Assembly: GCA_001563335.1 (NCBI GenBank)
Contig: LRSL01000014.1
Span: 1 to 24,956 of the forward strand
DNA length: 24,956 nucleotides
Source of the DNA: Candidatus Thorarchaeota archaeon SMTZ1-45
Lineage (GTDB): Archaea; Asgardarchaeota; Thorarchaeia; Thorarchaeales; Thorarchaeaceae
Direction: 5' to 3'
Shown here: positions 2 to 17,732 of the stretch, piece after piece
How positions within the stretch are numbered: the stretch's first letter is position 1
How the letters are laid out: the number at the start of each line of letters is the position of its first letter
Program-made: the position numbers and the translations under genes
Notes under the pieces: generated by a model
The model's database searches: none
What the model was told of the DNA's origin: nothing
The model's input: the letters and a program-made list of their open reading frames with translations, nothing else

Positions 2-3000
2 ACCAAATCTGGTTCATATCTGAATGTAGCTCAAGTCGATGTCACATTCACATTGAGAGCTCACAAGACTGCAGTGACTGTGACTGGAGATATGACCACA
101 CCCTATGGCCAAGATACACAAGTCAATATTGTCTTGTTTGATCTGGACACAGGTTCTGCAGTTGATATTTCTGATGTCAATACAATAACCTTCAGCTATA
201 CAGGGGGATATACCTCCGATAACTTTGGTTCATACTCTGCCACCTTGACTACCGCTGATTGGAATGTAGGATCAGTTACAGCCACTTTGACTATCACAAT
301 GTCGAATATTAAGATTCAAGCACCTACACTATATGCATTCAACATCCAAATTTTGGCTCACAGGACTTCGTTGTCAGTAACGGGTGTCACTACCAACCCT
401 TACGGTAATCAGACTGCCCTTACAATAATCCTGACAGACTTGGAAAATGGTAGTTATGTCCCAATTGGTTCCGTTTCCAACATTCGACTTCAGCATCCAT
501 ATGGTTTTGATGACTTCAGTAGCTATGCCCTTACTCTGGACACTAGTTCTTGGTCTGTTGGAGCACATACTGTCACTGTAAATATCACAATTAGTGGAAC
601 AATCTATAGTGCTCCATCTAACTATCAATTTACGATTACGATTCGAAGCATGACTTCTGTAATGTATCATGATCCGTCTCCTTTGAACTTCCCATTAGGT
701 GCAGACTTTGAGGTATATCTCCGACTAAACACTAGTGAAGCAGGTCCACACTATGGTGATCCCATTTCTGGAAGAATTGCTGGGGAGTTCTCTGTACCGG
801 GATATTCCATCTCGATTGACACAACTGAGCAAGCAATTGGTCGATATAAACTCACAATTAGTGAATCCTATTTCGTAGGTACAACCTATGAGATTACAGT
901 TTATTTCACGTCCACAGACAATAGATATGCCAATACATTTGTAGTGATTCGCTTCTTATATCGTTCAATTGATAGTACACTAACCTCTCCTAATTATCCG
1001 CAGGTTACAACGCCTTATCAACTGAATGTGGCGATTCTTCTAAACTATACAGACATTGATTTTGGTTCTGGTATCGAAGGTGCAACAATATCCTCACCAG
1101 ATCATTCATCCTGGATAGCAAGCTGGACCGATTTGAGTGGCGGTCTATATAATGTTACAATTGATGTATCAACACTAAGCCAGGGCATCTATTACCTTAA
1201 CCTTACAGCCACCAAATCAGGTGTCGCACAAAGAACTCTAGAGTTCAGAATAGTAATTCGTGAAGCATATACCTCTGCAATCCCATCAGTGAGTTCGCTG
1301 GTAATTCCAATCGGCAACTCACCATTCTTCTATGTTGAATACTCTGATGTTGATAGACTCATACCTATTGATAATAGCTCATCTCCGTATACTCAGGTTA
1401 TATCAACATGGCATAACTTCTCAGTTGAATATATGCCTGGACTTCAGAAATACAAGATAACATTCCACACATCTGATTCGGATTCAATTATTTCGAATAT
1501 AGCGTACAACTTCGAATTCTCAAAAGGTAGCAACTATCAAATTGTCAGTTTTAACATTATAGTAACTATCCGTACGCACAATACCGAGTTTAGAATCGTT
1601 AGCTCAATTGAGCCAACGAGTACAATCGGAACTTTCAATATTTCTGTATACTATGGAGATCTTGATAGTGCTATAGGCATCAAGTCTGCTTTGGTTATAT
1701 TCTCTGTTTCTAATGTATCTGGACCAGTTAGCTCGAGCTACGATTATGACTTTGATCTTGGCAATGGTTATTACATAATATCTGTGCCAGCTTCTCAATT
1801 TGGTCTAGGTTTCCAGACCTTTACAGTCTATGCAGATTGGACTGGCGCTGTATTAAAGTACCAAGACAAGTCATTCGTTACATCAGCAAATGTAGTGGGT
1901 AGGGATTCAGCTCTAACACTTCTAATTGGTTCTGAGCCAACGCCTTATAATGAGGACATGGGTTACACATTCTTCTATAGCGACATATTCAGTGGTGTGG
2001 GAATTGACAATCTTACTGGAAATGTTTTCATCTATGTAAGTTTCCAAGGTGAAATAGTTAATCCATCTGATATCATTATTACTGACTTTTCTGGAATAGA
2101 TAATGGAACATACGCCATTCAATTTAACACAAGCATCTTCAGTAGAACTGGTTTAATCTATATGAATGTCTTCGTCAACTGGTCTAAAGGTGTTTCACCC
2201 TTCTATTCTAACCGAACTGATGTTGTATCAGTCAGGGTTCTTCCAAGGGATACACTCCTTTCAATCACACCTGCATTATCGACAAGTTATAACGAGAATG
2301 CAACCTTTACGCTAACATATGAGGATGTCACTAGTGGCCTAAACATCATTGATGATCCAAAACTGACAATCTCTATGAATGTTACATTCTCATATGTTGA
2401 GAATGCAGGAATCTTCGAAATAACGATTAACACGAGTCAGTTTGGTAGCTTAGGAATTAAGGCGATTCGAGTTGATGTGACGTGGAGTGGTATTCCATTC
2501 TATGCAAATCGAACTGGTCGAATCACATACATCACTATTGTTACTAGAGTTACCTCTCTTGAATATCTGACACCTCCACCAACGCAGTATGGTGATCAGG
2601 TGGTCTTCAATGTGACTTGGACTGATATAACGGAAGGTGCTTCAATTCCCATTACAGGTGCAACTCTTGTGTTAAAAGAAGGTCTTTCACCAATTGATGT
2701 TAGCGAATATTCCTATGTGGAAATATCACCCGGAGTTTATAGAGTAACTTTGAATACAACATATGCTTTTGCGCCGGGTACAGATACGCTAAGAGTTGAG
2801 ATTTCTTCAATCAACTTCTATTATGCTCTAAAGGCAATCAATCGTCAATTCACAATTCAGGAACGTGCAACTATAGTCGCTGCGAATCCTGTACCTGATG
2901 TTCCATATGGCTCCTCAATTACTGTGATTGTGAGTTACCTAGATTTGTTCACTGGAACACCTATAGCAAATGATTCTGCCAATGGATATCCTGTGACAAT

Positions 3001-6000
3001 AATGATATCAGGTCAGGCATATGCGTCAATCTGGAGAGCTGGATTCCAGAACTATCAATTGAATATCTCATGGAATCCGCTTTGGGATGCAACTTGGACT
3101 CCTGGAACATCACATAGCCTTACAATACAAATGGATTTTGCTTACCAAGCACCATTCTACTTACCAAATCAAGCACTTATCACATTCGATATAAGAATCA
3201 GAGACTCTTCACTTGCACTTGATATTGAGCCAGAAACCACTCCATATCTTGATAATGTGAACTTCACTGTTTTCTATAGTGATACTGATGCAGGAGGAAC
3301 AGGTATTGCAGGTGCTGATATCTCCATAGTTGGTTTTACAGAAATTACAGACTATCTCATTTCAGAAGGTAGTCCTGGATACTACACAATAACTGTATTC
3401 ACTACATCGTTGGGAAGCCTTGGCATACATGTTCTTGACATTCAAGCAGACTGGACAGGTGCACCTTATCATGCTGATGCCGCAAGAAGTGTCAGTGTGC
3501 TTGTTCGAACAAGAGCCACAAACCTAGAAGTCACTGTGCCACCAGCCCAGACACTATATTTGGACAATCTAACCTTTGAGTTTGAATTCAATGATCTCGA
3601 TGCTGGTACATCTATTTCACTAGCTGACCTAACTATCATTCATCTCTACTGGCCTAATATGACTGAAATCAGTCAACTTGAATACACTATTATTGAAAAT
3701 AGTGGCACATATGAGCTTAATATCTCCTCAACTACACTTTCTACCTCGCCAGTGACTGGTCTATCGATTAGAGTGGTTGTGGATTGGCCTGCTGTGCAAG
3801 CACCATTCTATGCTGATGATTTCACTATTGTCAAAATTACAATTACAGGACGCTCCATTCTTGTTGAAACAGAGCAGATTCAGCGTACGCCTAAGGGCGA
3901 CATTCTAAATATCACAATCAATCTTTCAGATCTTGACAATGGAAATCCTGTTGAGGGAGCAATAATCCAATTCAGCTGTCAGGGTCATTTCCTACAGGAA
4001 GGTATTGATTACACTAGAAGCGAAGCACTGGGAACCTATGTATTCAACGTTGATACACTTTCTTTGACTGGTACAGGCACGTTTCTCTTTGATATAAGAG
4101 TCCAATGGAATCCCAATTTCTCACCGTTCTATTCTAACCGTTCCTTGGTAACTTTGACTGGTCTAGTTGATTTGGTGAGAACTTCACTTCAGGTCAATGC
4201 ACTGGTACCATCATCGGTTCAATACACAGACTCTGTTTCACTTAATGTGACTTGGAGAGATTTAGACCATGGACTTCCTGTTACTGGATATGCTGCAATA
4301 ATAGATTCCAATGTGAAATACCTTGTCAGTGGAGCAAGACCTGCAGACTTGGTTGTCTATGAGTATGGCTCATCAGGTATCTATAATATTACTTTCAGTA
4401 CTTCTGATTTGCCAACACTAGGACCCTACACACTTAGAATTGTAGCAGCTGTTTCAGTATATGCATCTGTAACTGTGACCCCACAATTTAACGTTATAGC
4501 TATCAACACAGCCCTCACTCCTGTTGAAACATCTGTTTCTGCATATTGGAAGAGTAGCATAGAAATCAGAGTAGATTATGAAGACCTACTAAACGGAATC
4601 CCAATCTCTGACGCATTGAGTGTATTTTGGTCCTATGGGGCATTTATTGGACCACTGGACGAAATAGGATCAACTGGCCGATATCACGCAACAATAGATA
4701 CTGACAGTTTTGAAGCTGGGACATTTGTATTGACTATTGAAGCTAGTAAGGATAAGTACACGACTTCAATAACAACAATAACATTAGTTGTATTGACGAT
4801 TCCAAGTGAAATAGTAATCCTAGAACCGGTTGAAATAGTAAAAGAAGTGAATAGAGGTAGTTCTGTAATCATTGAGGTCCGGCTTCTTGACACCAATTAC
4901 AGTCTTACAATCGATGACACCCAAGTTCGGAATGAATCCGGATACCTCCAAGTCTATGCATCTCTAAATAGCATAAAATATTACATGACATATAATTCCT
5001 TTACAGGTCTATGGAATGTAATAATACCTGGGAATGCGACCATTCTGGCAGCACTGTTATCTTATGATATTCAGATATTTGCCTTCTTTAATAATTACGA
5101 CCCAGCTGTTGATCAGTTCAAGATATATATCACGCAAACTTCAACGAAGCTTAGTGTGGTTGGTCTTCCTGATCCACCCAAACTTGAGGTGTATTACCTT
5201 CAGAATGTCACTTTGCAACTTAATTTCACGACAGCAAAAGACGTTGCTTTCTTTATGGAAATCAATGATGGAATGGTGAATTGGACTGATGCGATTCGAA
5301 ATATTAGTCTCAGCTTTACATCAATAGGTAATGGTATTTGGACTCTGACATTCAATACGTCAATTCTAGGATTTGGTACTATTGGAGTTTCATTCTATGG
5401 ATATCCAGAAAATACAACTCTTGCTCAAACAATAACGAGCATGACATTGACGGTCAAAAATGTTCCAACTGATGTTGATGGTCCTACTGCAACTATAGAC
5501 TTGTATTGGGGCTGGGCTGGGAACATCTCCATTGACTATATTGATACATACAATTCGAGGTATATACCTGGAGCATTTGTTACCTATAGCTATGGTAACC
5601 TCGATTTCAATGCTACAGACCTCGGAAATGGAACATATACTCTCTTTATTGATACAACATTATTGGAATCTAATGTTAGGGAAAGAATATCCACTTTATT
5701 CTTCCTTGAAAACTATGAAACCCAATCTCGTAGCTTCTTTATTCGAGTACTTGAGAGACCCACAGAGCTAATCATTGATTATCCTGACCAGAACTTTGTA
5801 ACAATTGATCAAGGAATACATTACTTGGAGTTAACGATGGGCGACTCCATTGATATCTCACTATTCTATAATGATATCCTTGCTATTGGAGGATTAAATG
5901 GTGGAATTACTTCTGCAACTTTCTCAGAGTTCACAGACATGAGAGCTCCTGCCTATTTCGGTTCTGGTGTGTCTATGCCAATAGTCTTTCGAGAAGGATT

Positions 6001-7297
6001 CGGATTCTATAATTTCACATTCGACACAAATAACCTGGTGCTTTATGCACTCCACTCAGGTCCTATCATTATCGAGGGCGAGTACTTCAGATTTTCCATA
6101 GAAGTTTTTGATGCGAATAGAGAACTTCAAGCAATAGAAATCCGTATCAGAATCAGAACAACACCGACAGAAATTCTCCATGATGGCGAAGTTGTTACCA
6201 CCGACCAAGCGTTCACCATAATTAATGGAGAAACTATTACATATGATTTCTATCTCAACGATACATGGCATGGTTGGGGTGTTGATGGTGCTACATTTTC
6301 TATAGAACCCGGTGTAACAGCAATCATCAGTAGCAATTCTTCAATAGGAAATGGTTACTATAGAATAGTTATCCAAGCTATTGGGTATGGCGGGTTAGAA
6401 GATATCACAATAACAATGAAACGAGAATTTCATGATGATGTTGATATCGTTTTTTCAATACGCACACTAGCCAATGACTTCGATGTCCTATTTCAAAACA
6501 TTACTATTTATGGTCTGCCAATTAGTATATTTATTATAGCGCTACTTGGCGCTTATGTGAAAGTTTGGAGTGTTCCAAAGAGAATTCGCCAGATAAATGG
6601 TCAGCTCAAGAGCCTTCGTAAGGGTAAGGTGCCAAAACCAATCTCTGATGTAAAAAGCAGACAACAGCTTGCTGCTGAGCTTTTCAATGATACTTTTGAA
6701 AAATTGAAACTAACACGAACTGCAGCACAGATGCCTGAGGATCCTATTCCTATCGAGGTTCCAGAAATGGGCGAGCTTCTCATTCAACTTGCGATTCTCA
6801 CAAATCTAAGCCCTGAGGAGCTTGATGAGTTCCAAGCTGATATCAATAAGATGAAAATGAGTGAGCAAGCCGCCTTCGTACGAGAAGTCATTATGCAGGA
6901 AGCAATCCGAGCTGCTCGTCGAGAGGGCCGAACAGTTGAAGAAACACTTGCCAGAATAGAACAGGAAGCTCAACGACGTCTCGGTGCGGAGGAAGATGTA
7001 GAGCCTATTGATGTGCTAGAACCTGTTTCTGAAGAGATGGTCTTTCTTGAAGACGAAGAGCCAAAAGAAATCCCACGAAAGGAAACGGTACCGCCCGAAG
7101 ATGAAGTCACCTATGAGGAGCCTCCTGACACAATTTCCGAGAAGATGAGTCTCTATGAGATAGAAGAGCTTCGGAAAGACCTCGAACGAAGAGGTGTACC
7201 TCCTCACGAGATTGAAACCATAATTGAACAAGCAAAGGAATTACCTCGTGAACTTGTCGAAGAGCTTGTCAAGAGTCTAGAAGGGAAGAAAGACTAG
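2..7297 (+). CDS. Giant type-I membrane/surface protein A (5'-truncated): >=20 tandem Ig-like beta-sandwich repeats, single TM helix, conserved ~245 aa cytoplasmic tail
   Basis: The frame is open from base 2 (TKSGSYLNVAQVDVTFTLRAH...), so TTG at 53 is not the real start. This stretch aligns with internal residues NATKPGSLYEMASVNITFILRPH of the downstream paralog. Repeats of ~100-120 aa follow the pattern T-x-L...PY...Y-x-D-x-D-x-G...G-x-Y-x-I-x-x-N/D-T, with many N-x-S/T sequons. TM ITIYGLPISIFIIALLGAYV at ~6500-6560 is followed by basic residues (positive-inside rule). Confidence 0.93.
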   Translation, partial: TKSGSYLNVAQVDVTFTLRAHKTAVTVTGDMTTPYGQDTQVNIVLFDLDTGSAVDISDVNTITFSYTGGYTSDNFGSYSATLTTADWNVGSVTATLTITMSNIKIQAPTLYAFNIQILAHRTSLSVTGVTTNPYGNQTALTIILTDLENGSYVPIGSVSNIRLQHPYGFDDFSSYALTLDTSSWSVGAHTVTVNITISGTIYSAPSNYQFTITIRSMTSVMYHDPSPLNFPLGADFEVYLRLNTSEAGPHYGDPISGRIAGEFSVPGYSISIDTTEQAIGRYKLTISESYFVGTTYEITVYFTSTDNRYANTFVVIRFLYRSIDSTLTSPNYPQVTTPYQLNVAILLNYTDIDFGSGIEGATISSPDHSSWIASWTDLSGGLYNVTIDVSTLSQGIYYLNLTATKSGVAQRTLEFRIVIREAYTSAIPSVSSLVIPIGNSPFFYVEYSDVDRLIPIDNSSSPYTQVISTWHNFSVEYMPGLQKYKITFHTSDSDSIISNIAYNFEFSKGSNYQIVSFNIIVTIRTHNTEFRIVSSIEPTSTIGTFNISVYYGDLDSAIGIKSALVIFSVSNVSGPVSSSYDYDFDLGNGYYIISVPASQFGLGFQTFTVYADWTGAVLKYQDKSFVTSANVVGRDSALTLLIGSEPTPYNEDMGYTFFYSDIFSGVGIDNLTGNVFIYVSFQGEIVNPSDIIITDFSGIDNGTYAIQFNTSIFSRTGLIYMNVFVNWSKGVSPFYSNRTDVVSVRVLPRDTLLSITPALSTSYNENATFTLTYEDVTSGLNIIDDPKLTISMNVTFSYVENAGIFEITINTSQFGSLGIKAIRVDVTWSGIPFYANRTGRITYITIVTRVTSLEYLTPPPTQYGDQVVFNVTWTDITEGASIPITGATLVLKEGLSPIDVSEYSYVEISPGVYRVTLNTTYAFAPGTDTLRVEISSINFYYALKAINRQFTIQERATIVAANPVPDVPYGSSITVIVSYLDLFTGTPIANDSANGYPVTIMISGQAYASIWRAGFQNYQLNISWNPLWDATWTPGTSHSLTIQMDFAYQAPFYLPNQALITFDIRIRDSSLALDIEPETTPYLDNVNFTVFYSDTDAGGTGIAGADISIVGFTEITDYLISEGSPGYYTITVFTTSLGSLGIHVLDIQADWTGAPYHADAARSVSVLVRTRATNLEVTVPPAQTLYLDNLTFEFEFNDLDAGTSISLADLTIIHLYWPNMTEISQLEYTIIENSGTYELNISSTTLSTSPVTGLSIRVVVDWPAVQAPFYADDFTIVKITITGRSILVETEQIQRTPKGDILNITINLSDLDNGNPVEGAIIQFSCQGHFLQEGIDYTRSEALGTYVFNVDTLSLTGTGTFLFDIRVQWNPNFSPFYSNRSLVTLTGLVDLVRTSLQVNALVPSSVQYTDSVSLNVTWRDLDHGLPVTGYAAIIDSNVKYLVSGARPADLVVYEYGSSGIYNITFSTSDLPTLGPYTLRIVAAVSVYASVTVTPQFNVIAINTALTPVETSVSAYWKSSIEIRVDYEDLLNGIPISDALSVFWSYGAFIGPLDEIGSTGRYHATIDTDSFEAGTFVLTIEASKDKYTTSITTITLVVLTIPSEIVILEPVEIVKEVNRGSSVIIEVRLLDTNYSLTIDDTQVRNESGYLQVYASLNSIKYYMTYNSFTGLWNVIIPGNATILAALLSYDIQIFAFFNNYDPAVDQFKIYITQTSTKLSVVGLPDPPKLEVYYLQNVTLQLNFTTAKDVAFFMEINDGMVNWTDAIRNISLSFTSIGNGIWTLTFNTSILGFGTIGVSFYGYPENTTLAQTITSMTLTVKNVPTDVDGPTATIDLYWGWAGNISIDYIDTYNSRYIPGAFVTYSYGNLDFNATDLGNGTYTLFIDTTLLESNVRERISTLFFLENYETQSRSFFIRVLERPTELIIDYPDQNFVTIDQGIHYLELTMGDSIDISLFYNDILAIGGLNGGITSATFSEFTDMRAPAYFGSGVSMPIVFREGFGFYNFTFDTNNLVLYALHSGPIIIEGEYFRFSIEVFDANRELQAIEIRIRIRTTPTEILHDGEVVTTDQAFTIINGETITYDFYLNDTWHGWGVDGATFSIEPGVTAIISSNSSIGNGYYRIVIQAIGYGGLEDITITMKREFHDDVDIVFSIRTLANDFDVLFQNITIYGLPISIFIIALLGAYVKVWSVPKRIRQINGQLKSLRKGKVPKPISDVKSRQQLAAELFNDTFEKLKLTRTAAQMPEDPIPIEVPEMGELLIQLAILTNLSPEELDEFQADINKMKMSEQAAFVREVIMQEAIRAARREGRTVEETLARIEQEAQRRLGAEEDVEPIDVLEPVSEEMVFLEDEEPKEIPRKETVPPEDEVTYEEPPDTISEKMSLYEIEELRKDLERRGVPPHEIETIIEQAKELPRELVEELVKSLEGKKD

Positions 7298-7470: not shown

Positions 7471-10400
7471 ATGGTGCCAATGATGCGGAAAAGTTGTCTT
7501 TTCTCCCTAATTTTTGTTGCGTTGTTTGTGTTTAGTCTTGCAGACCTCTCTGGGAGTGGTGTTCCTACAGTGGATCGAGGTCTGTTAGTGAATAGCCAAT
7601 ATCAGGTTTCGGAGGCAGGTGGTGCATATGTTGGAACAGGGTCTCCTCTCACAGTCTCATTCTCTGGCACCTTCACAAATAGCTCCAGTTGGAGTCAAAC
7701 GACCACAACTCTCTCCTCTAGCTTCACCTCTGGCACATCGTTTGTTGTTACCAACTCAAGTACTGTAGCATGGACTGCGTATATTCTTGTTTCTCCACCA
7801 GCAGAGGTAGAGAGTCTAAGTTTCAATGTAGATTATCAAGAAACTGAGTGGCGTCCAATTTCATTGACAAATCCAATTGGAGTAGTGATGAGCTATCCTA
7901 CAGAGTGGTGGTATGAAACTGGACTTGTATTTGTAAGTCAATCCGCTGTAACAACTCATGGTCTCTGGAAGCTCGAATTTGTAGCGATGAACCATCTATT
8001 CAATCTTGAATTAGGACCAAGTAGTGGACCATTGGGTTCAACTTCGACATTCGGTCTAAGTGATGAGATGTTGTTTCGGAGTACAAGTAGTTGGATTACT
8101 GGTGCATCCACCAAATTTGTACTGACAGATCCAACTGGTTCTGAATGGTACTTTGCTACTAACACCACATCGGGTTCTCCAACTCACATTTTGCAATCAT
8201 TCCGATACAAGAAAGACATCACCATAGACCGAACTCGGCATCTTGCTACAAGTGTGAACAACTTCCCTGTCTTGATCGACATCACAGATTCTGATCTTCA
8301 AACAGATGTCCAAAATGATGGAGACGATATTCTATTTGTATCTGGGGGCCATATCCTCTCACACCAGATTGAACTATTTGAGAAAGCAACAGGTCATCTT
8401 GTTGCATGGGTGAAGACAAATCTTACAGGCTCTGTTAACACTGTAGTCAGCATGTACTATGGAAATCCCCTTCTTGGTAATATGGAGAATCCTGCGGATG
8501 TGTGGACTGAGAGTTTCGCAGCTGTTTGGCATCTTGATGAAGATGCTACTGCTGGACAAACGACAGCAACTCATTATGATTCAACATCTGAAGGATATGA
8601 TGGCACTCAAAATGGAAACTTCGATGATTCTGGCAGAGTTGGCTTAGGACAACACTTTGATGGCTCAAATGATCAGATTGTTATCCTAGCATCAGAAGTA
8701 CTCGAGCCTGCTGGGGATGTTGAGATATCTGGTTGGTTTAAACTAGATGTAGCTCACACATCTACTTCAACAACAACAAAACTACTCTTCACTAAAATGC
8801 TTGATGGCGACAATGATATGCACATTGCACTTGTTGGAACTGACTATACAACAGCAGCCGCTACTGATGGAAGTCTGGTCTTCAAGACTGAGAATGGTGG
8901 TAATGGTCAGATGTACAAATGGACCAGTCAAACAAGCTGGCAAGCTGGCGTATGGTATTATTTCTCTTGTTTCATGGATGCTAGTACTCCTTCAAATAAT
9001 AGAATCCAAGTTAATGGTGTAGTAGATGTTGCTGGTTCGAGTGGAGGCATAACCTATGCTGACCTCTCTTTCACCGCAGATTGGGGAATTGGGGGTGGAC
9101 TAATCGATCAGATTTCTGGAAACCTTGCATGGTTTGACGGTGTTATGGATGAAGTCCGGGTGTCTGCCACAACTACCGCAAACGGTAGGTCTACTGCATG
9201 GCGTGCAGCTGAGTATCAGAATCTAAACAGCCCCTCAACATTCTACTCAATAGGACCGGAGCAGGAAAGAACCTCTCCTGATTCTCAAATCAAGAAGACT
9301 GTTGACGTGACAGCTTTGGCTGGTTCTTGGGTTGTTTCTGGTTACTACAACGACTCCGGTAGCTCGGTCAACTATCGTGTGGGCATGTATGAACGAACCT
9401 TTGTCATAAAGCATGCTTCCTCATTGAGTCTCACAGCTCCAACTGATGCAGTAGCTGACAGTATAACTGTAGCCACAATTGGTGATTCGGTTTATGTCCA
9501 AGTGGAACTAACTGATGGTATCACAGCATCTGGTGTGGCTGGTTCTATTATGACAACAAATTGGACCATTTATGGCTCTGGAACAAACCTCCAATTCCAT
9601 GATGAGGGAGGAGGTTTGTATGGCCTTGTGCTTAATACATCGCACCTTGAGAACAACATTAGATGGAGGCTCAATATCTTATCAAGTCATCCCTACTACA
9701 CTGATGCTTCAACCACTCTATATATTGATCTTAACCACGACACCTCTCTTGATTATACGAATATAACCTCTACACCCACAGGGTTTGATTTCACAGCAAC
9801 TCTGTTTTTCACTGACACATTCAATAATGGTAGAATCTCAGGAGCGACTATCACATTAGCAAATGGAACTGTAATCTCTCCTGATGCGGAAGGGAATGGT
9901 CAATACAATATCTCTATCCCAACTTCAAGTCTTACTCCCGGAATCTACTGGTATATTATCAATGCGACTAAACCTGGCTCATTATATGAAATGGCAAGTG
10001 TGAATATCACTTTCATTCTTCGACCACACTATACAGCAGCTTCGGTGTCAGGTGATCTTCTGACTCCTTGGGGTTTTGATACTCCATTGACAGTAGTTCT
10101 AATCGACCTTGATACTGGTGGTTTTGTTGACATTAGTAATGTGGATTCTATTACCTTGACTCCATCAGGCTATGGGCCACAAGTTTTTGGAACATATAGC
10201 TTAACTCTTGATACTGATTTATGGACTGTCGGAGTTGCAGATGTCACACTAACTATCAGCATGTCTAGTTCTAATTATTATGAACCAGATGCATATGTCT
10301 TCCAAATAACAATTAGAAAACATTACACATCTGCAACAGTTGTTGGAAATCTTGTTACTCCCTATGGAAACAATACTCCACTAACTGTAATGATAACAGA

Positions 10401-13400
10401 CCTAGATACTGGAGCGGCGGTATCTGCCTCGTCAGTAGATTACCTTGAGTTTGATTCTAGCTATCCTCTCTTCTTCCTGAACTCTCCCTTTACAACACTC
10501 GCAGTTACTTTACCAACGGGTGATGATTCATGGGCTGTTGGAGTGGAATCTGTAACTCTAAGCATCAATATGATAGGGTCCTCTGTCTATCAAGACCCCT
10601 CAGATTATTTATTCCAGCTCACAATACGAAGCATGACTACCTATCTCTATAATGAACCAAGTGACCTCATCTTTCCGAATGGAGATGATTTCACAATTGT
10701 ACTCTATCTAAATGTCAGTGAGATTGGACCCAATTATGGTAATCCGATAAATGGGCTTGCAGCAGACTTCACTGTTAAGAATTCAACATACACCTATCCT
10801 GCTGTCGTGATTGGTCTAGGAAATGGACGATATAATTTAACTATTGCAGCTTCGTTCTTCCCGGAGGGGACTTATACAATTACTGTAACTGTGAATCCAT
10901 CTGATTCTCGTTACGCAAAAACTCAGTTAGTCATTACCTTTGACTATAGACCAGCTCGCAGTGATCTTACTGCAAACTTGTACACTGTGTCTACCCCATA
11001 TGACCATGACATCACAATAGTATTGTTCTATGAGGACTTAGATCGTGGCGTTGGTATAACAACAGGTGACATAACCTCCCTAGATGCTACAATCTTTGAC
11101 ACGCACACTGGAGGAGGGTATTATGATGTCCTCATTGATGTCAGTGGTCTAGCAGTTGGTACTCATGTTGTCAATCTTGAGGCTAATGCAGCTGGCTATG
11201 ATGCTAGAAGTGTAACAATTACTATCATCATTACAAAGATACACACGGATGCTGAACCTTCCCTGGTTTCGCTAGACATGCCTGTCGGCAGTACAAAGAT
11301 CTTCTACATTGATTTCAATGATCTTGATAACGGTGTCCCAATTAACGTCGCAACCCCAACGAATAATTGGAGTACACCAGCTAATGTCGTTGTTACCTGG
11401 ACTGGGATAACTTGGGAGGTGTCTTTTACAACAACTGGTTCCGATGCCCTCGGTACATACATTGTATGGTTCAACTTCGATGAGGGAAGCGGAAACTACT
11501 ATGATGGTTTCTGCGAGATTGAAGTAGTAGTACGTAGTCACGTGACAATTTTCAATCTTGTGAGCGCGATAGAGCCAACCCCCTACAATGGTATTGTCAA
11601 CATCTCTCTGCGATACTATGATTGGGATGGCAAAGTAGGCATTACTGATGATAGCAACATTCTTTCTCGTGTCTGGAATCAAACCAACTGGATAACTCAC
11701 ACCTTAGTCAATGATGGAAGTGGTTACTATACAATTCAGATTAATGCCACCCTATTTGGTCAAGGTGTTCAGAATTTCATCATTTACTTCGATTGGATCG
11801 GACCTGTTCAACAATTTGAAAATAAGTCTACCAATGCATCTGGAAATATCATAGGGATTGACTCTCGACTCACTCTACTTCAATCCTCGGAACCAACGCC
11901 ATATCTTGGGTCAATGCTCTATATCTTCAACTATGCTGAAACCGGTGGCGCTGGCATCACAAATACAAGTTATGGAGGAGGAAATGTCCATATCTATGTC
12001 AACTTCCAGGGACAAATAGTAGATTTAGGTCAAATCACTATAACAGAAATCGATCCTGTGTTGCAGCCTGGAAACTATTCCATTTCATTCAGTACTACAA
12101 TATTTGGTAGAACTGGTCTAATCTACATGAACGTTTACATCAATTGGACCGCAGGCGTAGCTCCATTCTATACAAATCGATTCGATGTCATCTCAGTTAG
12201 GATTCTACCACGTGATACAGTTTTATCTGTCGTACCTCCGACGCCTCAGGCTTATGGCGAGAATGCTACATTCTCATTCACATTTGAAGATGTGACTGGC
12301 GGCGCAAGTGTACCAATCGATGATGATCCTGCATTAGATGTCAGCTTAAGCCTTTCTGATTACACACTCACCTGGAATGGTGGGACACATGAATTTACAA
12401 TTTCCTTCAATACAAGTCAATTTGGAGCACCATTAGGTCAAAAGTCATTCACACTCAGTGTTACATGGGCTGGTGCACCTTACTACAATAACCGAACTGG
12501 TCGAACAGTCTTCGTCATGGTGACTACTAGACAGACAGTCTTTGATTATCAATCACCTGCACCTACAGCATATCTGAATAATGTCACCATCAACCTTGAA
12601 TGGACTGATGTTTCAGGAGCTGCAACAAGAGGAATCGAAGGAGCTATGGTCACTCTATTTAATGCCATATTTCCAATTCCCAGTGTTTACTACACTGTAC
12701 GAGATTTAGGTAATGGTATGTATGAAGTTGAACTTAACACAACCGCATACTCCAACCCCGCAGATTATGAATTAACAATTGAAATGTCGACAAGTTATTT
12801 CTATCTCAATAATGTAAGTTCTATGCGTATTCTGAAAGTCCTCTATAGGTCCTCACTTCTATCTGCTGAACCAATTGGACCAGCACCCTACAATTCCTCT
12901 CTTGTATATATACTAGACTTCCAAGATCGTTTAACTTTAGATACGATTGGCAATGATACATTAAAAGTCACCCTCACAATTCTGAATGGAAGTAGTTGGT
13001 ACTTCAACATTGAATGGAAACCAGCATTTCAATACTATGAGTTGACGATTGAAACTTACAACCATCCTGAGCTTGTCATTGGACTTGAGTATACATTGAG
13101 GATTCAAGCTTCATATGCGAATCAAGCTCCCTTCTATGGTTCTGATGATACATACGTATTCTTTGAACTTAGAACCCGTTCCTCAATTGTGACTCTGGTT
13201 GAATCTCCAGACCCAACACCATATCTCGAGGACGCACAATTCAGAGTTAGGTATGTCGATTCTGATAGCGGAAAAGGAATATTAGCGTCCAGCATATCGC
13301 TGTACAAGAGTGGAATTCCATTAACCGAAGGAGTTCACTATGTTCTTACAAACCAAGGAAATGGCTACTATCTATTCACATTGGAAACGACTGCATTGGA

Positions 13401-16400
13401 TGGTCTAGCTTATACCACTGTCCAAGTGCGTGCAATCTGGAGTGGCGGAGCTCCATATCATGATAATGCTAATCTAAATGTCGATGTATACGTGACCAGA
13501 CGAGAGGCTAATGTTGAAATCATAACACCGCCCACTCAAGCTAGATATCTAGACAATGTTACATTCCAATTCGTATACAGGGATCTTGGTAGCGGGGTAG
13601 TGATTACTACTATTACTTCATCAGAAATTGAGGTCTGGGCTGCAGGTATTTTGTTAGCATTAGGTCAATACATGATAACTGGAATTGCCGGTACATTCAC
13701 AGTAGAGGTCAATTCAACTGTACTTAGTCCTGGGTTGGTAACCAGCTATAACATAACAATTCGAGTTGATTGGGATGACGGAAGTGCTCCCTATTACTTT
13801 GATGATTCAACAATTGTTAGAGTTTCAACTAGATCAAGATTGATGTCATATACAGTGTTATCTGCTGAAGAAACAGCATTTGGGGAACTACTCAATTTGT
13901 CCTTTACATTGTTGGATGCAGACTCAAGCAACCCGGTGATTGATGCTCTGATATCTTTCGATCTTAAAACGGGTGGTCTAGTAGAAGGTGTCGATTTCAT
14001 TGTAATTAAAGGAATAGGAATCTATACGATCCAGATTGATACAACTGCCTTAGGTGTTCCCGGAACGTATCTGTTTGATCTTGATGTTGGATGGAATGGG
14101 TCCTCCCCATATTATCTTGGATTACCAACGATTACTATGACTGGAATTGTTTCCAAGATTGATACGCTCTTTGTCCCATTGGCTGATCTTGTTACAGGAC
14201 AGTGGCAGAGTTCGGCTTCTATCACTCTAAATTACACCAGCCTTCTTGATGGTAGCCCCGTATTAGGAGCAGAAATGAAATGGATATGGAATGAAGCATT
14301 CATCTATGCTGGACCTGCAGGGGAGATTGGAAGTGGACTATATCAAGCTGATATCGATACATCACTTGCTGACGCTGGTACATATGTGATAACTTTCATT
14401 ATAGAAAATCTGACCGCTTATAAAGAAGCAGTCGCGTACGTGACACTCGTCATTACAAACCTTGATAGTCAATTGACTCTGATAGACCCAGCCCTACCAG
14501 TAATTAGCGTTAATCGAGGTGCGGCCCTAATAATAACTGTCTACTTTATTGACGGGACCAGTAATCCAATCTCTCATTCAATTGATACTCAGGTCGTGGC
14601 AACTATTGAAGGTGTGTCCTTCCCATTAACATACAATGGTACTCCTGGGTACTATACAGTTACACTTCCCGAGAACGATGAAACTGCGACAAAAAGAGCT
14701 CCTCGAACGCCCTATAATGTAATCATTTCTGCAACAACAAAGAATTATGATCCCGCATTATCCTCGGTTACCTTCTATGTACTTCAGTCAGCAACCGAGA
14801 TTCAATTAGGACTCAATATGGCAGAAGAAATGACATTTGTGTACTCTGAAATGGGTTTACTTACAGTAAATGTAGTCATAGATGCAGGTGATATACCATT
14901 CTGGAATGGTACAGTACAGTGGTCGATACAAGATTTAGGGTTGATTGATAACTTTACCATCGACTATGGGAATGGTACGTTTAGTACCTACTTGGATACT
15001 ACAACAATTGGCTATGGGATTGTACCCATTATGCTAAGATTCATTCCTTGGAACAATATGTCTCTCTATGCAACATCATTAAAATTAATCACCGTGGCAA
15101 TAACTCGTATACAAACTTCTGTAACTCCCCCCTCTGGCCGCGAATTTTATTGGGGTTGGAGTGGTTATCTTGAGTTTATATACTGGTCAGAATCATTTGG
15201 AACAGGAATCCCTGATGCAGATGTAACTCTGACACTACCTGGATTAGAATCATCAGTAGCAATTGATCTTAACAATGGAACTTATCTTGTCTTTCTAAAT
15301 ACAACATTGCTCAGAGGAAGTTCAAGCTACTTACCACTAACAGTGAGTTTCACAAAAGCCAATCATCTTGAAGCAAATGCGATTATCCAGATTCGAATCT
15401 TAGAAGTTCCCACAGAGATTTCGGTTGAATCCGTCGAATATACCCCCTCTTATGCTGGTACCTTAGAGGATTTGATCAATCTTCAGATACCTATTGGAGA
15501 TTCGATGGCAATTGATTTCTGGTACAATGATACGGATAACTCTGAGGGCTTTGTTGGCGGATTGTTTGGGGCAACTTCCACACCAAATAGCTATCTTCGA
15601 GGTCCAACTATAGATGGGTATCTCAATGTGACAGTTATTACTCTTGGAGGTGGACTCTATAGAGTTGTCTTTGATACGATGGACGCTATCATTGCAGCTC
15701 AGGCAAGTTCAGAAGAGTATCGACTCTATATCGAGATGACGCTGAGTAATCGTTCCACAACAGACATTCTGTTTAAAATTGGGGTCATCAATATACCTGC
15801 TGAACTAATCATTATAGGAACACCTCCCACAATAATTACTAATGGTGAAATTATCACTTTGGAACTCTTCTATCATGATATTTGGCACAACCTTGGTATT
15901 TCTAGCGCTACTTCTACTGCTAATGTTAGTGCTGGTTCACCATTCTCCGCCCAGATTGAAGCGGGCTCAGCAGCTGGACAGTATTTCTTGAGCTTAAACA
16001 CTCGTGGACTTATGCTGAGTCCGGGATCTGGAACTGTTACAATCAATCTAAATGCTGAGTCATATTCTCTTGGTTCCGCATTACTTTTTATTGAAGTCCT
16101 TCAAAACAACGTAGATGTTTTGGTCACTAATGGAATCACATTTGGTCTTCCAATCGTGCTAATTATTGCAATCTTAGGATTTGCTTACATGAGAGTTTGG
16201 AGTGTGCCAAAACAGCTCAGAATGATCAACAATCAGATTAAAATCATCAAGAAAGGCAAAATACCCAAACCTGTGAAAGAAGTACGTAGTCGTCAAAAAA
16301 TCATTGCAGATCTATATACTGACACATACGAAAAGTTGGGAATGACTCGCCCTGTCGATGCTTTTCCTGAGGAGTCCATTCCTGTAGAAGTGCCAGAGCT

Positions 16401-16959
16401 TGGCGGGCTTTTAATTCAACTTTCAATCCTTACCAACCTCAATCAACAAGAACTCGATGATTTCAAGGCTGATATTGCCAAGATGAAGATGAGTGAGCAG
16501 GCTGCATTTGTTAAGGAAGTCATTATGCAGGAAGCTATTCGCGCAGCGAGGCGAGAAGGAATAACTGTTGAAGAAACCATTGAGCGAATACAGAAAGAAG
16601 CTTCTCAGAGGCTCGCTGGTGAGGAAGGTAGAAGAACTCCTGAAGATACCCTAGATGAAGAACCTGAAGAGCTTGAAGAAGAACCAGTGTTCCTTGCACC
16701 TCGAAAGAAAGAACCAGATGTTGAACTGGATGTAGAACCAGATGAGCCAGATGTACCAACTGAGGATTTCAGCTTTTCAAGTGACCAAATGAGTCCATTC
16801 GAAATAGAAGAGCTTCGAAAAGAGTTGCTTGAGAAAGGTGTGCCTTTGGCTGAGATTGACATCATCATCAAACAGGCTGGTGAGCTACCAAGAGAACTCA
16901 TTGAAGAGCTCGTTAGAAGTTTGGATGTTGAGAAGTCCAGGAAAGGCAAGAAAATCTAG
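7471..16959 (+). CDS. Giant type-I membrane/surface protein B: signal peptide, DUF2341 + LamG/concanavalin-A-like head, ~21 Ig-like repeats, TM helix, conserved cytoplasmic tail
   Basis: Signal peptide MRKSCLFSLIFVALFVFSLA (start could be ATG 7471, 7480 or 7483). DUF2341-like YKKDITID..NNFPVLI..GDDILF..AWVK..SMYYGN at ~8206-8470. LamG-like VWHLDE..FDGSNDQI..ISGWFK..WYY..FDGVMDEVRVS at ~8500-9255. TM GITFGLPIVLIIAILGFAYM at ~16130-16190. Collinear paralog of gene A. Confidence 0.95.
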   Translation: MVPMMRKSCLFSLIFVALFVFSLADLSGSGVPTVDRGLLVNSQYQVSEAGGAYVGTGSPLTVSFSGTFTNSSSWSQTTTTLSSSFTSGTSFVVTNSSTVAWTAYILVSPPAEVESLSFNVDYQETEWRPISLTNPIGVVMSYPTEWWYETGLVFVSQSAVTTHGLWKLEFVAMNHLFNLELGPSSGPLGSTSTFGLSDEMLFRSTSSWITGASTKFVLTDPTGSEWYFATNTTSGSPTHILQSFRYKKDITIDRTRHLATSVNNFPVLIDITDSDLQTDVQNDGDDILFVSGGHILSHQIELFEKATGHLVAWVKTNLTGSVNTVVSMYYGNPLLGNMENPADVWTESFAAVWHLDEDATAGQTTATHYDSTSEGYDGTQNGNFDDSGRVGLGQHFDGSNDQIVILASEVLEPAGDVEISGWFKLDVAHTSTSTTTKLLFTKMLDGDNDMHIALVGTDYTTAAATDGSLVFKTENGGNGQMYKWTSQTSWQAGVWYYFSCFMDASTPSNNRIQVNGVVDVAGSSGGITYADLSFTADWGIGGGLIDQISGNLAWFDGVMDEVRVSATTTANGRSTAWRAAEYQNLNSPSTFYSIGPEQERTSPDSQIKKTVDVTALAGSWVVSGYYNDSGSSVNYRVGMYERTFVIKHASSLSLTAPTDAVADSITVATIGDSVYVQVELTDGITASGVAGSIMTTNWTIYGSGTNLQFHDEGGGLYGLVLNTSHLENNIRWRLNILSSHPYYTDASTTLYIDLNHDTSLDYTNITSTPTGFDFTATLFFTDTFNNGRISGATITLANGTVISPDAEGNGQYNISIPTSSLTPGIYWYIINATKPGSLYEMASVNITFILRPHYTAASVSGDLLTPWGFDTPLTVVLIDLDTGGFVDISNVDSITLTPSGYGPQVFGTYSLTLDTDLWTVGVADVTLTISMSSSNYYEPDAYVFQITIRKHYTSATVVGNLVTPYGNNTPLTVMITDLDTGAAVSASSVDYLEFDSSYPLFFLNSPFTTLAVTLPTGDDSWAVGVESVTLSINMIGSSVYQDPSDYLFQLTIRSMTTYLYNEPSDLIFPNGDDFTIVLYLNVSEIGPNYGNPINGLAADFTVKNSTYTYPAVVIGLGNGRYNLTIAASFFPEGTYTITVTVNPSDSRYAKTQLVITFDYRPARSDLTANLYTVSTPYDHDITIVLFYEDLDRGVGITTGDITSLDATIFDTHTGGGYYDVLIDVSGLAVGTHVVNLEANAAGYDARSVTITIIITKIHTDAEPSLVSLDMPVGSTKIFYIDFNDLDNGVPINVATPTNNWSTPANVVVTWTGITWEVSFTTTGSDALGTYIVWFNFDEGSGNYYDGFCEIEVVVRSHVTIFNLVSAIEPTPYNGIVNISLRYYDWDGKVGITDDSNILSRVWNQTNWITHTLVNDGSGYYTIQINATLFGQGVQNFIIYFDWIGPVQQFENKSTNASGNIIGIDSRLTLLQSSEPTPYLGSMLYIFNYAETGGAGITNTSYGGGNVHIYVNFQGQIVDLGQITITEIDPVLQPGNYSISFSTTIFGRTGLIYMNVYINWTAGVAPFYTNRFDVISVRILPRDTVLSVVPPTPQAYGENATFSFTFEDVTGGASVPIDDDPALDVSLSLSDYTLTWNGGTHEFTISFNTSQFGAPLGQKSFTLSVTWAGAPYYNNRTGRTVFVMVTTRQTVFDYQSPAPTAYLNNVTINLEWTDVSGAATRGIEGAMVTLFNAIFPIPSVYYTVRDLGNGMYEVELNTTAYSNPADYELTIEMSTSYFYLNNVSSMRILKVLYRSSLLSAEPIGPAPYNSSLVYILDFQDRLTLDTIGNDTLKVTLTILNGSSWYFNIEWKPAFQYYELTIETYNHPELVIGLEYTLRIQASYANQAPFYGSDDTYVFFELRTRSSIVTLVESPDPTPYLEDAQFRVRYVDSDSGKGILASSISLYKSGIPLTEGVHYVLTNQGNGYYLFTLETTALDGLAYTTVQVRAIWSGGAPYHDNANLNVDVYVTRREANVEIITPPTQARYLDNVTFQFVYRDLGSGVVITTITSSEIEVWAAGILLALGQYMITGIAGTFTVEVNSTVLSPGLVTSYNITIRVDWDDGSAPYYFDDSTIVRVSTRSRLMSYTVLSAEETAFGELLNLSFTLLDADSSNPVIDALISFDLKTGGLVEGVDFIVIKGIGIYTIQIDTTALGVPGTYLFDLDVGWNGSSPYYLGLPTITMTGIVSKIDTLFVPLADLVTGQWQSSASITLNYTSLLDGSPVLGAEMKWIWNEAFIYAGPAGEIGSGLYQADIDTSLADAGTYVITFIIENLTAYKEAVAYVTLVITNLDSQLTLIDPALPVISVNRGAALIITVYFIDGTSNPISHSIDTQVVATIEGVSFPLTYNGTPGYYTVTLPENDETATKRAPRTPYNVIISATTKNYDPALSSVTFYVLQSATEIQLGLNMAEEMTFVYSEMGLLTVNVVIDAGDIPFWNGTVQWSIQDLGLIDNFTIDYGNGTFSTYLDTTTIGYGIVPIMLRFIPWNNMSLYATSLKLITVAITRIQTSVTPPSGREFYWGWSGYLEFIYWSESFGTGIPDADVTLTLPGLESSVAIDLNNGTYLVFLNTTLLRGSSSYLPLTVSFTKANHLEANAIIQIRILEVPTEISVESVEYTPSYAGTLEDLINLQIPIGDSMAIDFWYNDTDNSEGFVGGLFGATSTPNSYLRGPTIDGYLNVTVITLGGGLYRVVFDTMDAIIAAQASSEEYRLYIEMTLSNRSTTDILFKIGVINIPAELIIIGTPPTIITNGEIITLELFYHDIWHNLGISSATSTANVSAGSPFSAQIEAGSAAGQYFLSLNTRGLMLSPGSGTVTINLNAESYSLGSALLFIEVLQNNVDVLVTNGITFGLPIVLIIAILGFAYMRVWSVPKQLRMINNQIKIIKKGKIPKPVKEVRSRQKIIADLYTDTYEKLGMTRPVDAFPEESIPVEVPELGGLLIQLSILTNLNQQELDDFKADIAKMKMSEQAAFVKEVIMQEAIRAARREGITVEETIERIQKEASQRLAGEEGRRTPEDTLDEEPEELEEEPVFLAPRKKEPDVELDVEPDEPDVPTEDFSFSSDQMSPFEIEELRKELLEKGVPLAEIDIIIKQAGELPRELIEELVRSLDVEKSRKGKKI

Positions 16960-17732
16960 TCATCCAATGTTTCCTCTTTGCTCGCAAGGAAATATGAGAG
17001 CGGCAGAGTGGTCCCAGACGAGATAATCTTTATTCTGTTAGTCCTTCTAACAGGATATTGAGGATGTTTGGCCAGAGTGTAGACTCGTCTTGACTTTGAC
17101 TCTGAAACATGAACATGTACTTGGGCTGCACCTGTAAGTGTTCTTCCGCCCTGTGGAAAATTTGGTTTTCTTATCGAAACTGGCGCAGACACAAGAGAGA
17201 ATATTCCTCTGCGAAGTGTAAGAGTTGATATTTTCGATGCCATGTGGGAAATCTCTTGCATTCCCTCTCCCTTTAGTCCTTCTTCCAGATATAACTGAGG
17301 AAGTCCTGTCACCATTAGGACTCTTGCAGGGACTGTGTTAAGAAATCCCTCAAGTTGATTCATCACAAGGTCATACGTCTGAGGTGAGTTGAACGCTCGA
17401 GAGATGTAGATTCGTTCCAAAGCTGTTTCTGGTTCTATATCATACTCATACGCAAGCTGCGTGAACTTCTCCAGTTTGATAATGTTTGCACTGTCGATGA
17501 TTATCGTAGGTGTTTCCAATCCTCCCTTATCAAGTGAGGTCTGCACTTTCACTGCAATACGTTGAAAGTCATCATGTAGTGACCTATCACCATAGAAGAG
17601 ATGAACTAATCCAGACTCAAGTCCACCCCCGAGGAGGCTGTCAAGTGCTACTATTCCCGTTTCAACTTTTACACTCATGAACTCGTCTGCAGTATGAAAA
17701 CCTGGTCGCAGTGGAGTTTCAGGCAATCTCAT
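16956..17732 (-). CDS. Inactivated RadA/Rad51-family paralog (RecA fold, no N-terminal HhH domain, degenerate Walker A/B)
   Basis: RadA hallmarks: ETGIVALDSLLGGGLESG, IAVKVQ..KGGL, IIIDS, ALERIYISRAFNS.Q, GGRTL, LAKHP. The Walker A position reads YGDRSLHDD (no GKT) and Walker B reads VLMVTG (no D). Confidence 0.88.
   Translation of the reverse strand: MRLPETPLRPGFHTADEFMSVKVETGIVALDSLLGGGLESGLVHLFYGDRSLHDDFQRIAVKVQTSLDKGGLETPTIIIDSANIIKLEKFTQLAYEYDIEPETALERIYISRAFNSPQTYDLVMNQLEGFLNTVPARVLMVTGLPQLYLEEGLKGEGMQEISHMASKISTLTLRRGIFSLVSAPVSIRKPNFPQGGRTLTGAAQVHVHVSESKSRRVYTLAKHPQYPVRRTNRIKIISSGTTLPLSYFLASKEETLDD

Follow-up and report, generated by a model that had tools for sequence, protein, structure and literature searches.

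A modular C-terminal tail of an undescribed domain family shared by tandem giant proteins of Thorarchaeota

The stretch of DNA analyzed here (the window) comprises 24,956 nucleotides from Candidatus Thorarchaeota archaeon SMTZ1-45 (contig LRSL01000014.1, positions 1 to 24,956) and carries two adjacent giant open reading frames (ORFs), A and B. Both end in a modular tail of ~245 amino acids that is conserved between them beyond chance and constitutes an undescribed domain family. On the sequence features set out below, we rate A and B as surface receptors or adhesins whose predicted cytoplasmic tail belongs to an undescribed Asgard domain family, and we tentatively favor docking of cytoplasmic partners as the function of this tail. 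No prokaryotes known to date are more closely related to eukaryotes than Asgard archaea, and we know of no account of how their cell surface is connected to the cytoplasm.

The window corresponds to C14, one of 119 contigs in a 3.54-Mb genome (label G000) that is 88% complete. The two giant ORFs stand in tandem on the forward strand:

2..7297, + strand: ORF A, giant, 5' end cut by the contig start (2431 aa visible), with a repeat-rich ectodomain, one membrane helix and a predicted cytoplasmic tail
7471..16959, + strand: ORF B, giant, 3162 aa, with a signal-peptide-like N-terminus, a DUF2341-like region, ~100-aa internal repeats, one membrane helix and a predicted cytoplasmic tail

A and B are paralogues over their whole length (38% identity over 1651 aligned columns by BLASTP), and global alignment of the ectodomains gave 771 identical residues at 1998 positions (39%). 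The ectodomain of B contains internal repeats that have diverged (99 segment pairs reached E<=1e-3 when segments were compared with each other by phmmer), and the N-terminal region of B matched DUF2341 (PF10102) with 21.5 bits (E 3.3e-4), just under the Pfam gathering score of 23.4; a PF10102 or PF13385 label is precomputed for many full-length relatives. N-x-S/T sequons are more frequent than expected from composition in both A (49 vs 24) and B (52 vs 33), and cysteine is nearly missing from both ectodomains. Near the C-terminal end of each protein lies one strongly hydrophobic helix, with 244-254 residues after it. From the signal-like N-terminus of B (a hydrophobic stretch called by eye), the sequons and the single hydrophobic helix we infer a type-I topology, with a glycosylated giant ectodomain outside and the tail in the cytoplasm. 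This agrees with the original prediction, which was made from the sequence alone and had placed a membrane-proximal cytoplasmic helical domain under strong purifying selection at 6560-6985 of ORF A: the region comes after the sole hydrophobic helix at the C-terminal end of a protein that has a signal-like start.

Conservation peaks in a 27-residue block (6848-6928 in A and 16480-16560 in B) in which 26/27 residues are identical. Coordinates, peptides and codons given earlier for this block proved exact, and the shared motifs said to precede it are present in both tails. At the DNA level the peak is identical at 63/81 positions, with codons such as gcc gcc ttc gta in A against gct gca ttt gtt in B. 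Pairwise alignment of the 6560-6985 region with its counterpart in B showed 93/142 identical residues (65%), and identity by segment was 17/26 in the juxtamembrane (JM) part, 18/39 in the segment that follows, 47/58 in a three-helix core, 20/53 in a linker and 30/47 in a terminal module. Tail conservation between A and B exceeds chance: the best 27-residue window of the ectodomain alignment has 20/27 identities, a value reached by only 2/1972 windows, whereas 44/215 windows of the tail alignment reach 20, with a maximum of 26/27.

The proportion of synonymous differences (pS, Nei-Gojobori) was 0.74 in the ectodomain, 0.83 in the 6560-6985 region and 0.92 in the peak, indicating synonymous saturation throughout, while the corresponding nonsynonymous proportion (pN) was 0.43, 0.22 and 0.039, and 0.49 in the linker. 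With dS saturated, a value for dN/dS would carry no meaning, but saturated synonymous sites exclude gene conversion and DNA-level constraint and therefore place selection on the protein, as the original prediction had argued; the near-zero dS that it named as a sign of gene conversion is clearly not what the block has. An origin of the block's identity in recent gene conversion, an overlapping gene or a structured RNA has virtually no chance of being right, as the saturated sites and the modest DNA identity of the peak refute it and the one feature in its favor, a 114-aa minus-strand ORF in the tail of B, has no counterpart in the tail of A. We treat this ORF (16605..16949, inside the tail-coding region) as a chance ORF. 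Contigs of other public metagenome runs cover 6495-6917 without difference, so this stretch is not an assembly artefact of one sample. Contigs from four public DNA runs are near-identical to the window with few single-base differences; at position 6904, within the core-coding part, the window has A and a contig of one public run, which may be the source of the window, has G.

The anatomy of the tail was derived from an alignment of 120 tails and two AlphaFold2 (AF2) models, one of the whole tail of A (35-row alignment, mean predicted local distance difference test score (pLDDT) 78, predicted template modeling score (pTM) 0.37) and one of tail residues 23-170 alone (55 rows, pLDDT 87.4, pTM 0.56). 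In these models the 26/27 block belongs to the folded helical core of the modular tail, whose parts are as follows:

6509..6559, + strand: membrane helix of A, a hydrophobic stretch through which AF2 helix 2-41 of the tail model passes
6560..6643, + strand: basic amphipathic JM motif of A, carrying a net charge of +8 over 27 residues and conserved P, K, R, G and P positions
6644..6760, + strand: short helix and ordered extended segment of A leading into the core, pLDDT 79-92 in the core-only AF2 model
6761..7006, + strand: helical core of A, four helices, including the 26/27 block
7007..7144, + strand: acidic disordered linker of A, with a hydrophobic motif (V/I, F/I/L, L) after an acidic run
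7145..7294, + strand: C-terminal three-helix module of A, AF2 helices 219-231, 236-248 and 251-265, pLDDT about 90
16141..16191, + strand: membrane helix of B
16192..16275, + strand: JM motif of B
16393..16638, + strand: helical core of B, including 16480-16560
16639..16788, + strand: acidic linker of B, including a 12-nt tandem repeat at 16710-16755
16789..16956, + strand: C-terminal three-helix module of B

The domain first proposed is thus conserved but was drawn too small, as the conserved tail extends from the membrane helix at 6509 to the stop at 7297. The block itself is real, yet it is one module of a four-part tail, and the most widely conserved part is the JM motif rather than the KMKMSEQ helix.

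Conservation across the 120 tails is modular, with three conserved blocks and a variable acidic linker between them, and the AF2 models have confident helices in the conserved blocks and pLDDT <50 in the linker, in line with the helical character predicted originally. The modeled membrane helix runs unbroken into the JM basic amphipathic helix, which has a net charge of +7 or +8 in 27 residues and P, K, R and G positions that are invariant or nearly so even in the most divergent paralogues. In the core model, the 26/27 block is the longest helix of a compact four-helix bundle, and all 34 sequences of the three-helix core alignment agree at 13 of its 54 columns. The linker has a median length of 49 residues, consists of 35% D+E and varies freely in sequence, except that a hydrophobic triplet follows the acidic run in 101/120 tails compared to 31.8/120 shuffled linkers, a pattern typical of linear binding motifs. 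The 12-nt tandem repeat in the linker of B (4.1 copies, 72% matches) fits linker expansion and contraction.

The terminal three-helix module occupies 45 residues at the extreme C-terminus. One paralogue of 3975 aa in the same genome (G000:C81:63716-75640) has a 427-aa tail with four consecutive terminal modules (L004:787-2067, - strand), which fits multivalent binding. Comparison of the core helices with the terminal module by hhalign gave a probability of 57% over 17 columns only, a possible internal duplication.

Searches against known families and folds bore out the earlier statement that the domain is not a recognized one. Pfam-A searches with the 6560-6985 region, both whole proteins and 35 tails returned no tail family at the gathering threshold. 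Sub-threshold matches in the tail were to MobC_2 (21/35 members, best E 0.0012), Bap31_Bap29_C, RecX_HTH1 and PYRIN; the window's own tail reached 12.9-15.4 bits against cut-offs of 25-27.5, and the remaining members were judged by their E-values. NCBIfam likewise had no match to the tail at a curated cut-off (best MHJ_0274_fam, 21.6 bits vs 80), and the tail profile found nothing significant among all PDB sequences, where the best match (E 0.11) was a 59-residue stretch of the TFIIH subunit TFB2. Foldseek returned 0 matches in the PDB at E<=0.001 with either the whole-tail or the core model. By VIA-align, the best Z was 7.1 for the whole tail and 5.8 for the core, no chain reached Z>=8, and values of Z below about 13 are uninformative for helical bundles. 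The ESM Atlas gave no usable match to the tail, no catalytic or nucleotide-binding signature was seen in the tail or brought by a family match (Pfam, NCBIfam, PDB profile), and no description of the tail or the JM motif was found in the published literature searched.

Death-fold domains (DD, PYRIN) are likewise small all-helical modules in membrane-proximal receptor tails, and the death domains of Fas, FADD, TRADD and MALT1 were among the weak structural matches, with Z of 5.1, 4.5, 4.3 and 4.1 that lie in the noise range of a helical model. PYRIN appeared in 4/35 Pfam member scans at E 0.05 or worse, and the death fold is a six-helix bundle, whereas the modeled Thorarchaeota core has four main helices. 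We take the recurrence of death-fold matches as a lead and no more.

Apart from rare exceptions, the full tail is restricted to giant proteins of the window's family. When 5.8 billion proteins were searched through a word index with the tail of B, 126 proteins of 1785-5058 aa were returned, the named ones almost all from Thorarchaeota, and the tail profile, run against all 1.84 billion cluster representatives, matched 133 clusters at E<=0.001. Twelve shorter cluster matches were inspected and none came from another family; many short rows were fragments. The tail is always protein-terminal, with the match ending <=6 residues from the C-terminus in 122/122 rows. Across 400 Asgard genomes, a single tail sequence matched 80/85 genomes of the window's family, the 1/1 genome of a sister family and 0 elsewhere, and the tail profile matched 82/85 genomes of the window's family and none in families f8-f13.

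Within the window's genome, six giant ORFs carry the full tail, and these form three same-strand tandem pairs; the core and the terminal module were found in no other ORF of that genome. The pairs are:

2..7297 and 7471..16959 of the window, ORFs A and B
C81:75634-86634 and C81:63716-75640 of G000
C58:4978-12744 and C58:12723-20423 of G000

Among the matches listed, at least 16 further tail pairs on the same contig and strand, 9.5-11.7 kb apart, were present in other genomes (for example G353:C3, G355:C19, G362:C1, G372:C2, G377:C57 and G364:C13). This spacing between tails corresponds to the length of the downstream gene, indicating that the tandem arrangement is conserved. Tandem giant genes highly similar to their neighbors have been reported from two Thorarchaeota genomes, where they are distantly related to a giant gene of Heimdallarchaeum (Wu et al. 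2022, PMC8813620). A and B probably belong to the same gene class, and the passages of that paper that deal with the giant genes do not mention a cytoplasmic tail.

Tail and ectodomain have decoupled histories, as seen when ORF B was compared to its relatives (P0005-P0112). The relative with the closest tail, P0005, is 79% identical to B in the tail and 45% in the ectodomain, while relatives with 73-76% identical ectodomains have tails that are 70-72% identical. Ectodomain identities cluster near 45% and 72%. The tail is therefore not the better conserved part throughout; it keeps a high floor of ~55% identity, whereas the ectodomains fall into deeply divergent types. These comparisons suggest that divergent ectodomain types have been recombined onto similar tails. 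In a tree of 124 tails (branch supports left aside), the upstream and downstream members of the pairs form separate clades in the window's genus. The same tree places partner tails next to each other in some other lineages, for example P0040 and P0046 from one contig, which could reflect occasional homogenization.

Apparent exceptions to the giant, protein-terminal context did not hold up as alternatives. "Stand-alone" tail copies of ~200 aa all lie at contig ends and represent truncated giant genes. Five short tail proteins were looked up, and all are singletons on contigs of 797-2152 bp. Three of these, P0203, P0164 and P0222, join parts of the tail to unrelated N-termini on contigs of 797-1147 bp and are probable assembly chimeras; P0212, P0235 and P0240 resemble them in sequence. 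The other two, P0211 (341 aa, 2152-bp contig) and P0237 (191 aa, 899-bp contig), are divergent (25-29% identity), contain the helical core and, judged by eye, have no membrane helix. Either could be a true soluble protein with this core.

Outside Thorarchaeota, the similarity narrows to the JM motif. Five weak tail-profile matches from other Asgard lineages were inspected, and all were confined to the first 45-113 profile positions, directly behind a hydrophobic helix that lies close to where a large ORF ends. The window's genome itself encodes a seventh giant ORF (C46:7842-14930, 2363 aa) that has the JM motif (G000:C46:14139-14318) followed by a different tail. A JM profile of 60 positions, built from 11 sequences of 6 families, matched 274/400 Asgard genomes at E<=0.001, in each case close to the C-terminal end of a large ORF. 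Matches were concentrated in families such as f22 (121/135), f14 (18/19), f21 (10/14) and f29 (4/4) and were absent or nearly so from f8 (0/31), f10 (0/12), f11 (0/22), f13 (1/12), f26 (0/7) and f30 (0/5), the empty families serving as an internal negative control. In the protein database the JM profile found 100 proteins, and all attached names were Asgard, including one Odinarchaeum yellowstonii. A strongly hydrophobic 19-residue window lies directly upstream in 93/96 evaluable matches, and the tails that follow are 66-280 residues long. Further loci with the motif are L044-L048.

Hidden Markov models (HMMs) built only from Thorarchaeota cores and terminal modules scored <=3 bits on the helical ends of non-Thorarchaeota tails, and the JM motif is the only part statistically common outside the order, with the exception of one f14 protein whose match extends to profile position 113. 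With the core confined to Thorarchaeota and the JM motif spread across Asgard archaea, the helical core is best regarded as a probable Thorarchaeota addition to a more ancient anchor present across Asgard archaea.

Genes with the JM motif often lie near a second uncharacterized family, which we label X380, of ~380-aa cytoplasmic Asgard proteins. A 388-aa X380 ORF without a family match (G000:C46:6675-7838) ends 4 nt before the C46 giant gene, and a 363-aa homologue begins 21 nt downstream of a JM-tailed gene of 862 aa in G301, a 1.4-Mb genome from a different family; the two X380 proteins are similar over their full length (BLASTP E 7e-42). Other X380 loci include L051:5965-7053, G189:C1:949594-950712 and several in G002 and G004. 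X380 is present in 311/400 Asgard genomes, and its family-level pattern is almost identical to that of the JM motif, both being nearly absent from f8-f13 and f30. This shared pattern is weak evidence of a connection, because it may reflect a single deep split and related genomes are not independent.

Physical linkage was assessed by comparing JM and X380 coordinates in ten few-contig genomes from seven families. JM matches (E<=0.01) lay within 6 kb of X380 (E<=1e-5) in 15/25 cases, compared to ~0.6/25 expected by chance according to our rough arithmetic from X380 loci and genome sizes. The 15 neighbors come from 7/10 genomes and about 12 separate loci. X380 is upstream of the JM gene in G000:C46 and G004 and downstream in G301, G304 and G189. 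At G189:C1:943872-949560 (L055:873-6561), in f22, three consecutive JM-tailed genes (758, 544 and 509 aa) are followed by an X380 gene and a TrmB-like winged-helix gene. X380 may be a partner or a local regulator of JM-tailed genes.

Each of the two remaining X380 paralogues in the window's genome has a gene for an Arf-family GTPase-domain protein after it (Pfam E 3.6e-21 and 1.2e-19), and the same order recurs for one X380 paralogue in G362. One of the Arf-like neighbors has a weak longin-like N-terminus (Clat_adaptor_s, E 0.011). X380 and Arf-family GTPase genes lie together on the same strand at these loci:

G000:C75:37872-41377, - strand: X380 (40241-41377) and Arf-family GTPase genes
G000:C118:7978-9932, + strand: X380 (7978-9084) and Arf-family GTPase genes
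L054:1875-3829, - strand: X380 and Arf-family GTPase genes

Taken as a whole, the tail forms the modular, probably non-enzymatic end of giant, repeat-rich and sequon-rich, predicted type-I surface proteins of Thorarchaeota, and docking of cytoplasmic partners is the role that we put forward for it, at slightly less than even odds of being right. The JM amphipathic helix, continuous with the membrane helix, would lie on the inner leaflet or pair with a neighbor, and the helical core would offer a fixed binding surface close to the membrane. Beyond it, the acidic flexible linker of ~50 residues could act as a tether with a short hydrophobic motif of its own and the one to four 45-residue terminal modules as tethered hooks. 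In this way the tail would tie both giant proteins of a tandem pair to one or more cytoplasmic partners, as the tails of eukaryotic adhesion receptors do. Docking best explains selection on the protein together with the modular layout, the linker motif and the repeated end modules. It is also argued for by the invariably protein-terminal position of the tail, the lack of any catalytic or nucleotide-binding signature or family match, the tandem same-strand pairs, the occurrence of the JM motif on other Asgard surface proteins and the proximity of JM genes to X380.

Several observations weigh against docking. No cytoplasmic partner was identified, and no recognized binding motif was found in the tails; integrin-beta-type tails bind adaptors through NPxY or NxxY motifs, and NP.[YF] occurs in 0/120 tails. 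We know of no adaptor for the Thorarchaeota tail. No neighboring gene is common to the three giant pairs of the window's genome. The tail is not always the better conserved part among orthologues, since P0007 is 76% identical to B in the ectodomain and 70% in the tail. The Thorarchaeota giant pairs are not adjacent to X380, and about eight unrelated ORFs lie between them in G362. Moreover, X380 has a weak similarity to ArsR-type winged-helix repressors in its C-terminal third (E 0.02-0.2), so it may regulate its neighbors rather than bind JM-tailed proteins. Finally, self-association of the tails would explain the same conservation. Docking, self-association and sorting are not mutually exclusive. 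The original suggestion of a module for oligomerization or partner binding is plausible.

If the tails associate with each other, the JM helices and cores of the two pair members, or of many copies, would pack under the membrane and hold the ectodomains in a heterodimer or lattice. Conservation of the tandem pairs across genera fits such packing, as do the 3-4-3 spacing of hydrophobic residues in the JM helix (read from the alignments) and the closeness of partner tails in the tail tree of some lineages, supports aside. A tethered module repeated up to four times and a motif in a disordered linker are, however, more typical of recruitment, and the JM motif is also found on unpaired proteins; we consider self-association as the main role unlikely, though it deserves attention. 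Were it the whole explanation, the tail would still be a new domain family marking a major class of Asgard envelope proteins.

A signal for sorting or positioning is to our minds an equally unlikely main role. Here, the JM motif would be read by conserved Asgard machinery, for which X380 and the Arf-like GTPases are candidates, that brings large surface proteins to particular membrane sites or keeps them there, and Thorarchaeota would have added the core and the terminal modules in their own lineage. The near-identical family patterns of JM and X380 and their proximity in a variable gene order point this way, as does the position of X380 paralogues (two of three in the window's genome, one in G362) ahead of Arf-family GTPase-domain proteins. 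On the other side, the common phyletic pattern may be a single deep split, X380 may be a winged-helix transcription regulator, and the giant pairs stand apart from it. A more specific version, in which the JM motif and tail form an Asgard cargo or anchoring signal read by X380 with longin-like Arf-family GTPases and the core is an added docking domain for a further partner, strikes us as distinctly unlikely. If true, signal-dependent handling of membrane proteins under GTPase control, or a link between surface and interior, would have a prokaryotic forerunner.

That the tail is a passive anchor, a positive-inside stop-transfer sequence with a stable helical plug that sets topology only and has no partner, is very unlikely. 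The positive charge of the JM helix and the failure to find a partner or known motif suit it, but 26/27 identical residues would hardly be retained in such an anchor when identity elsewhere in the protein has fallen to 39%, nor would one expect it to keep P, K, R and G positions across Asgard families, a linker motif and repeated end modules.

The docking platform that we favor has partial counterparts in known systems. Integrin beta and cadherin proteins combine a large, repeat-built, glycosylated ectodomain and a single membrane pass with a tail that has a basic membrane-proximal segment and docking elements. A and B are like them in the repeat-built ectodomain, the single pass, the better conserved tail and the basic juxtamembrane part, and in their paired genes and probable use as pairs. 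No sequence or fold relation to integrin beta or cadherin is apparent, and the tail of A and B has folded helical domains beyond short peptide motifs. Archaeosortase signals (PGF-CTERM and others) also place a C-terminal membrane helix and basic residues on large archaeal surface glycoproteins, but these proteins end a few residues after the helix and have the motif on the outer side. In A and B, a full-length tail follows the helix and the conserved motif lies on the predicted cytoplasmic side.

The near-constant tail, together with a JM motif that is widespread in Asgard genomes and linked to X380, points to something inside the cell that reads these proteins, and suggests a connection between the outer surface of Thorarchaeota cells and an internal component. 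For the search for partners, the tail provides well-defined, soluble baits of small size, namely the ~145-residue core, the 45-residue terminal module and a JM peptide of ~30 residues. If a partner belonged to the cytoskeleton or to trafficking, a question on how eukaryote-like cell organization arose would become directly testable.

The remaining genes of the window are ordinary archaeal ones, encoding a RadB/Rad51-like ATPase, GcvH, an Orc1/Cdc6-like AAA protein, an FAD/FeS oxidoreductase pair, malic enzyme and a nitroreductase. The RadB/Rad51-like gene (16956-17732, - strand; Pfam Rad51 E 1.4e-14) is convergent with ORF B, and the stop regions of the two overlap by 4 nt.

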